A DNA stretch of 64,000 bases from Candidatus Parcubacteria bacterium (GTDB lineage Bacteria > Patescibacteriota > Minisyncoccia > UBA6257 > 2-01-FULL-56-20). Position 1 is the first letter of the stretch, and every line of letters begins with the position of its first letter. Of the stretch, positions 13,291 through 16,708 are shown piece by piece. The stretch spans positions 3,944 through 67,943 of the forward strand of contig QZIV01000007.1 of NCBI GenBank assembly GCA_003599135.1, given 5' to 3'. Both the position numbers and the translations under genes were made by a program. Under the pieces are notes generated by a model. That model saw only the letters and a list, made by a program, of their open reading frames with translations. It searched no databases and had not been told where the DNA came from.

Positions 13291-14310
13291 ATGAAAAAAG
13301 CATTAATCACCGGCATTACTGGCCAAGACGGTTCGTATCTTGCGGAACTTCTCCTTCGGAAGGGGTACGAAGTGCACGGCGTCATGCGTCGGGCGTCAAC
13401 GTTCAACACGGGAAGAATCGATCACATCTACCAGGACCCGCATGAAGCGGGAAGACGCCTCGTGCTCCACTTCGGAGACTTGTCTGATGCGAACACAATC
13501 AGGAAACTTATTTACAAGATTCAGCCCGATGAGATCTACAATCTCGGAGCCCAATCCCACGTCCGCGTATCCTTCGACATTCCGGAATATACGGCGAACA
13601 TCACGGGGATAGGAGTTCTCCGAATTCTCGAGGCGATTAAAGATTACGAGGAACATACGGGTAAGAAAGTTAAATTCTACCAAGCCTCAAGTTCTGAGAT
13701 GTTCGGAGCGGCGCCCCCGCCGCAAAACGAGGAAACCAAGTTCTATCCGCGGAGTCCGTACGGAGTTGCGAAAGTTTTTGCGTTCGACACCGTGCGGAAC
13801 TACCGCGAGGCGTACGGTATTTTTGCGGTGAACGGGATTCTTTTTAACCACGAGTCAGAGCGTCGCGGGCAGACATTCCTCACAAGAAAAGTTACTCGCG
13901 GAGTCGCGCGGATCAAGGCAGGCCTCGACAAGAAAATCTATCTCGGCAACCTCGAAGCCAAAAGAGACTGGGGGTATGCCCCGGAATACGTCGAAGCAAT
14001 GTGGCTCATGCTCCAGCAAACCGAGCCGGATGATTTTGTGGCTGGGACCGGGAAAAGCCACACCGTTCGAGAGTTCGTTGAACTTGCGTTTCGGCACGCG
14101 GGATTGTCAAACTGGGAGGACTACGTTGGAGTGGATCCTCGGTACTATCGCCCGACCGAGGTTCAGCACCTAGTTGCTGATTCTCGGAAAGCGAAGGAGA
14201 AACTCGGCTGGGAAGCGAAAACCGATTTTGAGACGCTCGTAAAAATCATGCTGAAGCATGACCTCGAGGCGCACGGTCTCAAGGAAGACGCAGCGAACAT
14301 TAAGCTTTAA
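13291..14310 (+). CDS. gmd: GDP-mannose 4,6-dehydratase
   Basis: The start [29 protein letters not shown], the NLGAQSHV block and 339 aa give a classic Gmd signature. Confidence 0.9.
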
Positions 14311-14765
14311 TGGCACGAGAGCGGGTTATCGAGCGATCGCTCTATCGGCGGATTCTTGAAGTGATCCCGATACCCTGTGTCGACATGGTCATCATCCACG
14401 GCACGCGTTTTCTTCTTGGAAAACGGAAGAATAAACCTGCGCGGGGTAAGTGGTGGCTCATCGGAGGCCGAGTGTATAAGGGAGAACTTCTCCGCAACGC
14501 AGTGTCGCGGAAAGCGAAAGAAGAAGCGGGGCTTCGTGACATAAAAATCAAGAAGCTTATTGGCGCGCGGGAAACTATGTTCAAGAACAGCGCTCAGGGA
14601 CCTTCTGCTCACACTATCAATTCGGTATTCTTAGTGGAATCCAGATCGTCGCGCCACCTTCTGCCGAACGACAATCAAAATGTCGAACTTCGGTGGTTCT
14701 CTCGAGTAGACAAAAGATGGCCGCCATACGTAAAAGAAATGATCCGTCTGGCGGGGTTTAGATAG
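14310..14765 (+). CDS. Nudix hydrolase, GDP-mannose mannosyl hydrolase-like
   Basis: A Nudix box (GGRVYKGELLRNAVSRKAKEEAGL) is present. The start overlaps the gmd stop (TAATG), the same gmd-gmm context seen in colanic-acid clusters. Confidence 0.6.
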   Translation: MARERVIERSLYRRILEVIPIPCVDMVIIHGTRFLLGKRKNKPARGKWWLIGGRVYKGELLRNAVSRKAKEEAGLRDIKIKKLIGARETMFKNSAQGPSAHTINSVFLVESRSSRHLLPNDNQNVELRWFSRVDKRWPPYVKEMIRLAGFR

Positions 14766-14836
14766 AGATATAAACCCGGATCAGAGAAAATCTATTGATA
14801 GGGAAAGCCTGGTAGTGTTATGTTATTGGGGCATTG

Positions 14837-15760
14837 ATGAACCTTCGGAGCAAAAAGATTCTTGTCACGGGGGGTGCGGGGTTCTTGGGAAAGCATGTTG
14901 TCCGGAAACTCGTCGAACACGGAGTTCCGGAAGGCAATATTGCAGTACCTCAAGCAGAGGATTGCGATCTCCGCTTCGTCGAGAACTCCCGGCGCGCCGT
15001 CCGGGGGAACGACGTAGTCGTCCACCTCGCCGGAGTTACCGGAGGAATCGAATTTCACCGGCAACATCCCGCGAGCGTCTTTTACGATAACTTGATGATG
15101 GGCGTGCAGCTCATGGAAGCGGCGCGGGAAAAAGGAGTCGAAAAATTTGTCACCATCGGGAGCGCAACCGAGTACCCCGAACGAGCACCTCTCCCTTTTA
15201 AGGAGGAGACGCTCTGGGACGGGTTTCCGGAGAAACTGCACGCGCCGTACACAGTTGCGAAGAAGATGCTTCTTGTGCAGGCGCAAGCGTATCGGAAGCA
15301 GTACAACTTCAACGCTACTCATCTGCTTCTCACCAACATGTACGGCCCCGGAGAAAAGATTGAGGAAACCAGTTTTGTAATCCCGATGCTCATCAAGCGC
15401 ATCGGAGAGGCCAAGAAAACAGGAGCAAACTTCATCGACGTATGGGGCACCGGCAGGGCAACGCGTGATTTTCTCTATGTCGAGGACGCAGCGGAGGCCA
15501 TTTTTCTTGCCGCCGAGCGATATGACAAACCCGAACCGGTTAACATCGCCTCAGGGTGGGAGATCTCGATACAAGAGCTCGTGGAGCTCATCGCGAAACT
15601 CATGGGTTTCCAGGGCGAAATTCGATGGGATACCTCGAAGCCCGAAGGCCAGCTCCGCAGGATTCTCGATGCCTCGAAAGCCGAACGGGAATTTGGATTT
15701 CGTGCAAAGGTTGATTTTGAAACCGGATTGCAGAAGACGATTCATTCTCACGGGTATTGA
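14837..15760 (+). CDS. GDP-L-fucose synthase-like NAD(P)-dependent epimerase/reductase (paralog 1)
   Basis: It has a GGAGFLG Rossmann motif, Fcl-type length and a TNMYGPGE...FVIPMLIKRI block matching the Fcl NLYGP...SHVIPALL region. The ATG is 3 nt inside the track's TTG start. Confidence 0.6.
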   Translation: MNLRSKKILVTGGAGFLGKHVVRKLVEHGVPEGNIAVPQAEDCDLRFVENSRRAVRGNDVVVHLAGVTGGIEFHRQHPASVFYDNLMMGVQLMEAAREKGVEKFVTIGSATEYPERAPLPFKEETLWDGFPEKLHAPYTVAKKMLLVQAQAYRKQYNFNATHLLLTNMYGPGEKIEETSFVIPMLIKRIGEAKKTGANFIDVWGTGRATRDFLYVEDAAEAIFLAAERYDKPEPVNIASGWEISIQELVELIAKLMGFQGEIRWDTSKPEGQLRRILDASKAEREFGFRAKVDFETGLQKTIHSHGY

Positions 15761-15766
15761 TTCCAC

Positions 15767-16708
15767 ATGACGACGATCCACGACAAGAAAATAGTAGTGA
15801 CAGGCGGCGCGGGGTTCCTGGGTTCTCACGTCGTTGAAGAGCTTCTTAGGCGCGGAGTGCCCAAAGAAAATATCTTTGTTCCCCGATCGTCTGAGTACGA
15901 TTTACGGTTATGGGAACACTGTGAGAAGGCGGTGGCGGGAAGAGACATCGTAATACATCTTGCCGCAAAAGTGGGAGGAATCGGCTTCAATCAGGCAAAA
16001 CCGGGGGAGCTTTTTTACGACAATGTTGTCATGGGGGCACAGATCATCGAGGCGGCGAGAAAAGCGGGCGTGCAAAAGTTACTGTGCTTGGGCACGATCT
16101 GCAGTTATCCCAAGTTCACTCCGGTTCCGTTCCGAGAAGAAGATCTCTGGAACGGATATCCCGAAGAAACGAATGCTCCATACGGGTTGGCCAAAAAGGC
16201 ACTTCTTATCCAAACGCAAGCTTATCGGGAACAATATGGCATGAACGCGGTTTTTCTTCTTCCAGTCAACCTCTATGGCCCGCGAGACAGTTTCGATCCG
16301 GCACGCTCGCACGTTATCCCTGCTCTCCTCAAGAAGGTGGCTGATGCTCAGGCTGAGCGTCGGGATTATATCGAGGTGTGGGGCACCGGCAAAGCCACGC
16401 GGGAGTTCTTGTACGCAGAAGATGCTGCAGAAGGCATTGTACTCGCGACGGAAAGATACGATAAATCTGATCCGGTGAACCTTGGTTCTGGAAAAGAGGT
16501 TTCGATTAAGCAGGCGATAGAGATCATCTGTCGCTTGATGGACTTCCGAGGAGAGATCCGTTGGGATACGACGAAACCCGACGGTCAACCGCGGAGATGT
16601 CTTAATGTGAGCCGTGCGAAAGAAGAATTCGGTTTCCAAGCGAAGACGGAACTTGAGGCTGGGCTTCGAAAAACCATTGATTGGTATCGAGCGCATCTCG
16701 CGAAATAG
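15767..16708 (+). CDS. fcl: GDP-L-fucose synthase (GDP-4-keto-6-deoxymannose 3,5-epimerase/4-reductase)
   Basis: GGAGFLGSH, the [23 protein letters not shown] block and a C-terminal WYRAH motif agree very closely with characterised Fcl/WcaG. Confidence 0.75.

Follow-up and report, generated by a model that had tools for sequence, protein, structure and literature searches.

Three divergent Fcl-like proteins in a surface-glycan island of a Parcubacteria bacterium: a candidate GDP-6-deoxyhexose module and a separate candidate C4-oxidation cassette

Bacteria of the candidate phyla radiation (CPR) are tiny, uncultured episymbionts whose surface glycans are essentially uncharted. The DNA analyzed here, a stretch of 64,000 nucleotides from a Candidatus Parcubacteria genome (contig QZIV01000007.1, referred to as the window), carries a surface-glycan island of about 45 kb (approximately 11.2–56 kb), flanked on either side by housekeeping genes. 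The island contains many glycosyltransferases and sugar-nucleotide enzymes, two Wzy-like genes, a flippase and an initiating transferase. Three of its genes encode short-chain dehydrogenase/reductase (SDR) proteins resembling Fcl, the GDP-L-fucose synthase (GFS), and are named FclA, FclB and FclC in the present study. FclA and FclB are arranged in tandem after genes for Gmd and a Nudix hydrolase, and FclC lies farther downstream. An earlier reading of the sequence (the original prediction) had placed all five genes correctly, including the overlap of the Nudix gene with the gmd stop codon, where ATG and TAA share one base (TAATG). In the following list GME denotes GDP-mannose 3,5-epimerase.

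13291..14310, plus strand: Gmd, GDP-mannose 4,6-dehydratase, 339 amino acids (TIGR01472, 514.6 bits; PF16363, 458.6 bits)
14310..14765, plus strand: Nudix hydrolase, Gmm/WcaH-like, 151 amino acids (Pfam NUDIX, 56 bits)
14837..15760, plus strand: FclA, Fcl-like SDR, 307 amino acids from ATG; Ser-Tyr-Lys triad, Thr/Phe in place of Cys109/His179
15767..16708, plus strand: FclB, Fcl-like SDR, 313 amino acids; Thr-Tyr-Lys triad, Cys/His dyad
31943..32905, plus strand: FclC, Fcl-like SDR, 320 amino acids; Ala/Tyr/Arg at the triad positions, GME-like Cys/Lys dyad

The best NCBIfam match of all three Fcl-like proteins was GDP-L-fucose synthase (FclA 227, FclB 285 and FclC 205 bits), with scores far under the equivalog cutoff of 500. 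In the PDB, the GFS structures 8du0/7ll6 scored 181, 215 and 184 bits for FclA, FclB and FclC, respectively, and E. coli GMER scored 135–192 bits. The Campylobacter proteins 7m13, 7anc, 7anh and 8ewu reached 94–150 bits, and the matches to the Campylobacter reductases were broken into two stretches around a Campylobacter-specific insertion. These best matches place the three proteins, as was originally proposed, with enzymes of the GDP-sugar type and not with those of the UDP- or dTDP-sugar type. FclA and FclB are 54% identical, FclB and FclC 39%, and FclA and FclC 38%, and each of the three has orthologs in other genomes that are 72–82% identical to it.

Catalytic positions were numbered on the E. 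coli GFS sequence (100% identical to PDB 1bsv), in which the catalytic triad is S107/Y136/K140 and the epimerase dyad C109/H179 (PMC7949155). At the equivalents of positions 107/109/136/140/179, FclA has S-T-Y-K-F, FclB T-C-Y-K-H and FclC A-C-Y-R-K. Given these differences in the active site, and the conservation of each pattern within its own family, the three paralogs are considered to be non-redundant, in agreement with the original view that they are not a matter of simple gene dosage.

A neighbour-joining tree was calculated from 306 trimmed columns with E. coli GFS, 8du0, MlghC, DdahC, 8ewu and A. thaliana GME as references; Rmd, Tld and ColC were not part of it. The proteobacterial GFS and the Campylobacter reductases formed one clade (200/200 bootstraps), apart from the window families. 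Bootstrap values were 88% for the FclA-type, 96% for the FclB-type, 98% for these two as sisters and 100% for the FclC-type. No Fcl-like protein of the window clustered with MlghC or DdahC in this tree, and the kinship with these two enzymes suggested earlier was thus not borne out. DdahC (T/H dyad) and MlghC (Y/R dyad) were assayed as reductases and had no epimerase activity (PMC7949155). The Cys/His dyad (SCYKH) is intact in the protein 8ewu, which was deposited as a GDP-L-fucose synthase but clusters with these two reductase-only enzymes, indicating that an intact dyad is no proof of epimerase activity.

A fourth class of Fcl-like proteins, 41–43% identical to FclC, was observed in the comparison loci from other genomes (labelled L001 to L093). 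Its members have a Cys/His dyad in the patterns ACYKH, SCYRH and PCYRH, in which the Ser position of the triad is taken by Ala, Ser or Pro and its Lys position by Lys or Arg. The genes are found at L008 2994–4070, L023 10029–10973, L026 12843–13823 and L088 18–1094. Those of L008, L023 and L026 have Gmd and FclB-type genes in their vicinity, and in L088 an FclA-type gene follows about 4 kb downstream. A radiation of Fcl-like enzymes seems to have taken place in these glycan loci, which are mostly from CPR.

FclB carries a triad together with the equivalents of C109 and H179 (T-C-Y-K-H). A profile scan for the FclA-type, with one genome per species, yielded 80 loci, and an FclB-type gene (TCYKH/SCYKH clade) was present in 80/80 of them. 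It adjoined Gmd on the same strand in 30 of the 80, while Gmd occurred anywhere in the locus in 39. The taxa concerned are CPR, methanogens and other archaea, Omnitrophota, Chloroflexota, Elusimicrobia, cyanobacteria and others. Since all 80 loci hold an FclB-type gene, with Gmd adjacent in 30, the FclB-type appears to be the ordinary Fcl of these lineages, and FclB itself is probably a GDP-L-fucose synthase.

FclA retains the Ser-Tyr-Lys triad (S109, Y138 and K142, invariant in 22 FclA-type sequences) and lacks the Cys109/His179 pair, for which the family has T, A, M or L and F, G, Y, M or L, respectively. Among the best 120 matches of FclA, taken together with FclA and FclB of the window, 63 sequences were of the FclA-type (intact triad, neither Cys nor His at the dyad) and 59 of the FclB-type (TCYKH or SCYKH). 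Of the 150 columns with a conservation of 90% or more in the FclB-type, the FclA-type retains 105, and it shows the class-specific changes V66T (95%), N72H (97%), C109T (85%), N133H (98%), L166M (94%) and E210D (92%). The retained columns and the fixed changes indicate a specialized enzyme, and not a decaying copy. The orthologs of FclA are closer to it (up to 72% identity) than the neighbouring FclB (54%), showing that the FclA/FclB duplication is old. Going by these residues, FclA is probably a 4-ketoreductase without canonical 3,5-epimerase activity. It falls outside the Rmd/GTS lineage (2pk3, 6x3b), to which it scored 58–60 bits versus 181 bits to GFS. Its closest relatives among the protein database matches were from Patescibacteria. 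Nine independent loci carry FclA-type genes, and all of those with a taxon name are CPR, the named cases being Patescibacteria group, Liptonbacteria, Saccharibacteria and Jorgensenbacteria.

In seven of these nine loci a TCYKH FclB-type gene lies immediately downstream of the FclA-type gene, and the stop and start codons of the two often overlap (L009, L089 and L091). In L008 the FclB-type gene is located elsewhere in the locus, and in L088 an ACYKH Fcl-like gene is the only one near the FclA-type gene. The order in L090 is exactly that of the window (RNase Y, Wzy_C, a protein of about 215 amino acids, Gmd, Nudix, FclA-type, FclB-type), and the order RNase Y, Wzy_C, a protein of about 210 amino acids and Gmd is common to L001, L003, L090 and L091. 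Because the downstream genes vary by locus, the module appears to be the conserved head of a variable glycan island. Fucosyltransferase-family genes (GT11 and GT10) lie inside the sister modules in L091 and L088, favouring fucose-type products. Sugar C-methyltransferases directly follow the FclA-FclB pair in L001, L088 and L091; in L001 two C-methyltransferases and an RmlC-like gene are found after FclB. L001 also has a Cupin_1/FdtA-like cupin (5358–5891, minus strand) between the Nudix and FclA-type genes and on the strand opposite to them, which has no counterpart in the window. A minus-strand open reading frame (ORF) of the window at 14792–15322 had no Pfam match, was unrelated to this cupin (E = 1), and was treated as spurious.

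Gmd of the window passed the TIGR01472 gmd equivalog (514.6 bits versus a cutoff of 415). The Campylobacter GDP-heptose 4,6-dehydratases are Gmd homologs and are likewise annotated as Gmd; the sequence alone does not separate a preference for GDP-mannose from one for GDP-heptose. In two comparison loci the Gmd ORFs (L089 2779–4980 and L015 2832–5075) are about 733–748 amino acids long, double the normal size. In the L089 ORF the Epimerase and GDP_Man_Dehyd domains were each matched twice, and a LAGLIDADG endonuclease-like ORF adjoins it at 2289–2798. The oversized gmd ORFs of some CPR genomes could reflect the insertion of an intein or a homing endonuclease.

The top NCBIfam match of the Nudix protein was PRK15434, GDP-mannose mannosyl hydrolase, at 55.5 bits, below the cutoff of 146. 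Its top PDB matches were 1rya/2gt4/2i8t, the E. coli GDP-mannose mannosyl hydrolase (47.7 bits), and the next Nudix class scored 32 bits. An Asn is aligned with His124 of the E. coli enzyme, presumably the catalytic base. R36 and N38, which bind the substrate in GDP-mannose mannosyl hydrolase (PMC10037897), are both kept. The earlier label "Gmm-like" is fair as a statement of resemblance, this being the best match by a clear margin, while the score does not establish family membership. The Nudix gene is found within the module in the window, L001 and L090, and not at that position in L003 and L089; the sole Nudix gene in L091, a weak one, is on the other strand.

FclC heads a compact cassette of its own, which is given here with the cupin upstream and two related genes downstream.

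30582..31067, plus strand: cupin of the mannose-6-phosphate-isomerase type (PF01050, 38.3 bits; Cupin_2, 21.6 bits), corresponding to the C-terminal region of TIGR01479
32910..33692, plus strand: short SDR of about 260 amino acids, directly after FclC, with GxxGxxG, SSS and YxxxK motifs and weak RmlD matches
33640..34665, plus strand: Cj1427-like SDR of about 308 amino acids, predicted nucleoside diphosphate (NDP)-sugar (GDP-heptose or GDP-hexose) C4-dehydrogenase
34658..35944, plus strand: candidate sugar 3-C-methyltransferase (Pfam Methyltransf_13/23/14), its start overlapping the stop of the Cj1427-like gene
37168..37941, plus strand: second short SDR, 51% identical to that at 32910–33692 (E = 2e-96), just upstream of the following gene
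38078..39172, plus strand: dTDP-glucose-4,6-dehydratase-like (RmlB-like) SDR (TIGR01181, 330.8 bits versus a cutoff of 365.1), a putative separate source of 4-keto sugar

The pattern A-C-Y-R-K of FclC departs from both the Ser-Tyr-Lys triad and the Cys/His dyad. Among its best 120 matches, 104 had ACYRK and 14 ACFRK; the family has more than 1000 relatives in the protein database, and every named source is a CPR lineage. The Cys and Lys of FclC align with the dyad C145/K217 of GME (PMC7949155), for which the row of residues is S-C-Y-K-K. The intact Ser-Tyr-Lys triad of GME has no equivalent in FclC, which shows Ala/Tyr(Phe)/Arg instead. FclC is predicted to be a C3/C5 epimerase of a 4-keto GDP-sugar, and possibly a reductase as well.

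The Cj1427-like protein scored 268 bits against PDB 6vo6/6vo8, followed by 88 bits for the next match. Over its full length (305 residues) it is 41% identical, with 63% positives, to the C. jejuni ortholog P0241. Its start is uncertain: ahead of the Rossmann motif at 33739, the TTG at 33640 is the sole start codon in frame. The 6vo6 chain comes from C. jejuni (96% identical to P0241), and in C. jejuni contigs its gene directly follows that of a protein 97% identical to MlghC/Cj1428, and is followed by genes for an FkbM methyltransferase, HddA, GmhA, HddC and KpsC. Because of this position beside a Cj1428 homolog inside the heptose locus, 6vo6 was taken to be Cj1427. Cj1427 is a GDP-heptose C4-dehydrogenase, with tightly bound NADH that is recycled by alpha-ketoglutarate; in the C. 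jejuni pathway the cupin Cj1430 then epimerizes C3/C5, and the Fcl-like Cj1428 reduces C4 (PMC10680097). The window protein is likewise predicted to oxidize C4 of a GDP-sugar. An arrangement of the FclC trio as a dehydratase-epimerase-reductase set was considered and rejected, since the member of about 305 amino acids has STTSVYG where 4,6-dehydratases have Thr-Asp-Glu (judged by eye on the L006 ortholog), and is Cj1427-like instead.

The best PDB matches of the methyltransferase were the 3-C-methyltransferases MtmC (4rv9, 199 bits), TcaB9 (147 bits) and 5t64 (144 bits), enzymes whose substrates are NDP-4-keto sugars. Three other loci, L006 (Saccharimonadales), L007 and L093, repeat the trio of FclC, short SDR and Cj1427-like genes. 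In L092 a Phe-variant FclC is followed by a short SDR and then by a DegT aminotransferase. The short SDR, a predicted C4 reductase, thus directly follows the FclC-type gene in all five contexts. A structural model of it, made from a two-sequence alignment, had a mean predicted local distance difference test score of 35.7 and was unusable. The original prediction counted at least three cupins in the island and mentioned them together with the C. jejuni cupin epimerases MlghB/DdahB. Pfam scans of ORFs of at least 140 amino acids between 11 and 57 kb detected only the cupin at 30582–31067, of the mannose-6-phosphate-isomerase/Cupin_2 type, and no RmlC-like cupin (PF00908). Epimerization was assigned to FclC and reduction to the short SDR on the grounds that no such cupin is present, that FclC has a GME-type Cys/Lys pair and an altered triad, and that an SDR with an intact triad follows it.

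From gene presence, homology, residue patterns, phylogeny and synteny, out of which all substrates, products and catalytic roles are predicted here, we consider it somewhat more probable than its negation that the island combines a Gmd-FclA-FclB module for GDP-6-deoxyhexoses with a separate C4-oxidation cassette around FclC. Gmd would make GDP-4-keto-6-deoxy-D-mannose, which FclB would epimerize at C3/C5 and reduce at C4 to give GDP-L-fucose. FclA would reduce the 4-keto intermediate without canonical 3,5-epimerization, giving a second GDP-6-deoxyhexose of the D-rhamnose or 6-deoxy-D-talose type, or a C-methylated relative, and the Gmm-like Nudix enzyme may trim the GDP-sugar pool. A canonical FclB beside an FclA without the epimerase dyad fits the production of GDP-fucose plus a rhamnose-type GDP-6-deoxyhexose, in line with the GDP-fucose or GDP-rhamnose-type sugars of the original prediction. 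In the cassette (FclC, short SDR, Cj1427-like C4-dehydrogenase and 3-C-methyltransferase), the Cj1427-like dehydrogenase would oxidize C4 of a GDP-sugar, the methyltransferase may alkylate C3, FclC, with its Cys/Lys dyad and degenerate triad, would epimerize C3 and/or C5, and the short SDR would reduce C4.

To our knowledge, every characterized Cj1427-type pathway uses a cupin (RmlC-like) epimerase. A bolder reading, which we put forward only tentatively, is that the FclC family consists of SDR proteins without redox chemistry, acting by means of their GME-like Cys/Lys pair as stand-alone C3/C5 epimerases of 4-keto GDP-sugars that replace the cupin in an all-SDR pathway of the Cj1427 type, combined here with 3-C-methylation to give a branched heptose or hexose. 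The same reading would make the FclA-type a CPR-specific, Fcl-derived route to D-series GDP-6-deoxyhexoses that is independent of Rmd/GTS.

Several observations weigh against the proposed combination of module and cassette. No assay or structure was found for the FclA, FclB or FclC clades in searches of the PDB and the literature, and no phosphomannomutase was found in the window. (Literature searches on CPR fucose biosynthesis and on Fcl-derived rhamnose or talose synthases likewise found nothing relevant.) FclB, described originally as near-canonical, is so in its catalytic residues and not in its overall sequence, being only 35–37% identical to characterized GFS enzymes and scoring 285.3 bits versus 500 for the NF047922 equivalog; its intact Cys/His dyad does not prove epimerase activity. 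Nor does loss of the dyad prove loss of epimerase activity in FclA, in which two gained invariant His residues (72 and 133) could supply acid/base chemistry. In other phyla, HddA/HddC/GmhA-like genes lie near Gmd-FclB-type genes (L010, L025 and L082). A Cj1427-like gene directly follows Gmd-Nudix-FclB-type genes in L014 (3456–4418, Saccharibacteria; 51% identical to that of the window) and Gmd-FclB-type genes in L082 (3414–4349, Omnitrophota; 40% identical), which hints that Cj1427-family C4-dehydrogenases may also serve GDP-hexose modules. Because of the contexts in L010, L014, L025 and L082, the division into a hexose and a heptose module is insecure. For the cassette, FclC keeps the Gly-rich dinucleotide-binding motif, and the paralog of the short SDR adjoins an unrelated RmlB-like dehydratase. 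In MlghC, an active reductase, Phe takes the place of Tyr136 (PMC7949155), so that the degenerate triad of FclC does not exclude reduction. The Tyr-to-Phe change was for this reason dropped as proof of lost reduction in FclC.

These last points lead to the alternative that FclC is a complete bifunctional epimerase/reductase with a non-canonical Ala/Tyr/Arg site, the short SDR serving a second reduction or another sugar. We regard this as possible, though clearly not the expected outcome. Besides the cofactor motif, it is favoured by the Tyr kept in 104/120 family members, by the example of MlghC, which reduces in the same fold with a non-canonical triad, and by the SCYRH and PCYRH relatives, which have Arg at the Lys position with a C/H dyad and adjoin Gmd and FclB-type genes (L023 and L026). 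The short-SDR paralog beside the RmlB-like dehydratase shows that SDRs of this kind do not occur with FclC alone. Against a bifunctional FclC, all three triad positions are altered together, with Phe for Tyr in 14/120 members, and a short SDR with intact Ser/Tyr/Lys follows FclC in all five contexts. The DegT aminotransferase in L092 would, moreover, use a 4-keto sugar without any reduction by FclC.

A further alternative, which follows the original prediction, is that GDP-D-glycero-D-manno-heptose is the sugar processed by Gmd, FclA and FclB (and FclC), which would work in the manner of DdahA/DdahC or MlghB/MlghC and produce GDP-6-deoxyheptoses. It draws on a four-gene set of the GDP-heptose type in the same island, with HddA, GmhA, GmhB and a guanylyltransferase as best matches.

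44757..45779, plus strand: HddA-like GHMP kinase, candidate heptose-7-phosphate kinase (NF049969, 157 bits versus 600; GHMP_kinases_N/C)
45786..46394, plus strand: GmhA-like, candidate sedoheptulose-7-phosphate isomerase (TIGR00441, 100.9 bits versus 209; SIS_2)
46398..46961, plus strand: GmhB-like, candidate heptose-1,7-bisphosphate phosphatase of the HAD type (NF006506, 164.4 bits versus 178; TIGR01656, 131.8 bits versus 84 and thus above the cutoff)
46951..47688, plus strand: sugar-1-phosphate nucleotidyl (guanylyl?) transferase, HddC candidate (mannose-1-phosphate guanylyltransferase, 118 bits; HddC, 76 bits versus 300)

Directly upstream of the HddA-like kinase, at 43610–44716, lies an SDR of 368 amino acids with GalE and ADP-heptose 6-epimerase as its best NCBIfam matches. 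A Cys/His-rich insertion of about 40 residues (...YRCAHSRG...ILCPHGKK...) splits its Epimerase domain match in two. This protein could be a heptose-modifying enzyme.

The action on GDP-heptose is further supported by the Gmd-like nature of the C. jejuni heptose 4,6-dehydratases (PMC10680097), by the HddA/HddC/GmhA-like genes beside Gmd-FclB-type genes in L010, L025 and L082, and by the Cys-to-Thr change of FclA, which mirrors T110 of DdahC. It nevertheless appears unlikely. None of the window paralogs clusters with MlghC/DdahC, their PDB scores to the Campylobacter reductases (94–150 bits, with matches split at the insertion) are below those to GFS (181–215 bits), and the island has no RmlC-like cupin epimerase. 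The heptose genes (44757–47688) lie at a distance of 10 kb from the FclC cassette and of about 28 kb from FclB, and in other genomes both the cassette and the FclA-FclB module are also found with no heptose genes close by. For the module, none were seen within 5–6 kb in five CPR contigs with Pfam-labelled tables, or in two more checked only by BLAST with the window proteins. The GT10/GT11 fucosyltransferase-family genes in sister modules also speak for a hexose. The GDP-6-deoxyheptoses of the original prediction are therefore not favoured for the module, while part of the idea survives in the Cj1427 homolog next to FclC, which belongs to a C4-oxidation route. If there is any heptose link, it would run via FclC and this C4-oxidation route, which keeps the 6-OH, and not via the 4,6-dehydratase route to 6-deoxyheptoses.

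Less probable again is the idea that FclA is a heterodimer partner of FclB that tunes or redirects its stereochemistry, or an NAD+-dependent epimerase acting on finished GDP-L-fucose. Enzymes of the GFS family are dimeric (PMC7949155), the FclA-type and FclB-type genes are adjacent in 7/9 loci, with stop-start overlaps in L009, L089 and L091 that suggest co-translation, and an FclA-type gene without a TCYKH partner was seen in one locus only (L088). That same locus, in which no FclB-type gene adjoins the FclA-type gene, argues against an obligatory partner, as do the invariant Ser/Tyr/Lys triad and the cofactor motif of FclA, which are those of a working catalyst. The simplest explanation, three redundant GDP-L-fucose synthases, has in its favour that this enzyme is the top NCBIfam and PDB match of all three and that relatives are so named in several sources, and is very improbable in view of the clade-conserved differences at catalytic positions, the age of the paralogs (38–54% mutual identity versus 72–82% to orthologs) and their distinct genomic partners.

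Other genes around the Gmd module are as follows.

11187..12632, plus strand: Wzy_C/O-antigen-ligase-like membrane protein (Pfam Wzy_C, 72.8 bits), the conserved left neighbour of the Gmd module
12629..13261, plus strand: TPR-like protein of 210 amino acids (weak TPR_14 match), directly upstream of gmd
16718..17947, plus strand: GT4 glycosyltransferase (Pfam Glycos_transf_1/Glyco_transf_4), directly after FclB

A gene for a protein of 209–216 amino acids occupies the equivalent spot upstream of gmd in L001, L003, L090 and L091. The GT4 glycosyltransferase may use GDP-sugars from the Gmd-Fcl module, which makes its putative donor one of these sugars. Convergent with it, and sharing 44 bases at the 3' ends, is a gene for a membrane protein of 834 amino acids with a weak YfhO match (17904–20408, minus strand). 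At 21226–23340 (minus strand) the glycan island encodes a fusion protein of 704 amino acids with GFO_IDH_MocA oxidoreductase and DAO-type FAD oxidoreductase domains. A Zn-dependent alcohol dehydrogenase (25180–26954) is followed by an overlapping nucleotidyltransferase (26947–27714) and a gene of the glycerophosphodiester phosphodiesterase family, an arrangement reminiscent of the TarJ/TarI pair for CDP-ribitol. A cytidylyltransferase-like ORF of 165 amino acids (51366–51863, plus strand; PF01467, 54.6 bits) extends over the 5' end of the flippase gene on the minus strand (49821–51620). Because of this overlap, the flippase start may have been mis-set by the mechanical ORF call.

Rather than being spare copies, the three Fcl genes probably contribute to the synthesis of different rare sugars, and the island as a whole suggests that CPR bacteria build elaborate glycans from several rare GDP-sugars. 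Two uncharacterized Fcl-like clades can be defined by their signatures, the FclA-type by a T/F dyad with N72H and N133H, and the FclC-type by A-C-Y/F-R-K. Two of the three are probably misnamed in the present annotation, which calls such proteins "GDP-L-fucose synthase" or generic "epimerase/dehydratase". Should the predictions prove right, these clades would offer new biocatalysts for GDP-sugar stereoisomers, and evolution would have split the epimerase and reductase halves of GFS in two separate ways. With every function predicted from sequence, the paralogs would stay within familiar SDR sugar chemistry.

Compared with known systems, the three paralogs have the extended-SDR fold of GDP-L-fucose synthase (Fcl/WcaG/GMER/GFS) and its WG(T/S)G and KPDG motifs, but are only 28–37% identical to it and form a clade separate from the proteobacterial GFS. 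FclB is the closest in kind, with the same triad, the same Cys/His dyad and the same place after Gmd. The Nudix protein has the LLGKRxNxPAxGxW...GGRV motif of Gmm/WcaH/NudD (1rya), including R36 and N38, and keeps the same company of gmd and fcl; it differs in the Asn for His124, and in a Nudix box (R-K-A-K-E-E) that is nearer to the canonical form than that of WcaH.

FclA is predicted to reduce GDP-4-keto-6-deoxy-D-mannose without epimerizing it. This is the reaction of Rmd and GTS, which produce GDP-D-rhamnose or GDP-6-deoxy-D-talose, but these belong to an SDR lineage other than that of FclA. DdahC (7anh) is, like FclA, an Fcl-like SDR without the dyad Cys, and its T110 corresponds to the Thr of FclA, whereas FclA has lost His179 too. 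FclA resembles DdahC or Rmd in its predicted chemistry and belongs to neither family.

The C145/K217 pair of GME (2c59) is matched by Cys and Lys in FclC, which is only 28% identical to GME, but GME has a full Ser/Tyr/Lys triad and performs its own C4 oxidation and reduction, whereas FclC has Ala/Tyr(Phe)/Arg. Like Cj1428/MlghC, FclC is encoded beside a C4-dehydrogenase gene of the Cj1427 type. The Campylobacter enzymes MlghC/Cj1428 (7m13, 7anc and 7cxt) and DdahC differ in an insertion of about 30 residues that is not present in the window proteins, in the dyad Cys that FclC keeps, and in having as partner a cupin epimerase, not found in the island. FclC resembles GME by its dyad and Cj1428 by its genomic partner, and belongs to neither family. 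The Cj1427/Cj1430/Cj1428 route to GDP-D-glycero-L-gluco-heptose remains the closest parallel at the level of the pathway. A Cj1427 homolog, an Fcl-like protein and a GDP-heptose gene set occur together in one island, and the logic of C4 oxidation, epimerization and C4 reduction fits the cassette. The cassette differs in that the role of the cupin would fall to the SDR-fold FclC, and in its additional short SDR and 3-C-methyltransferase.

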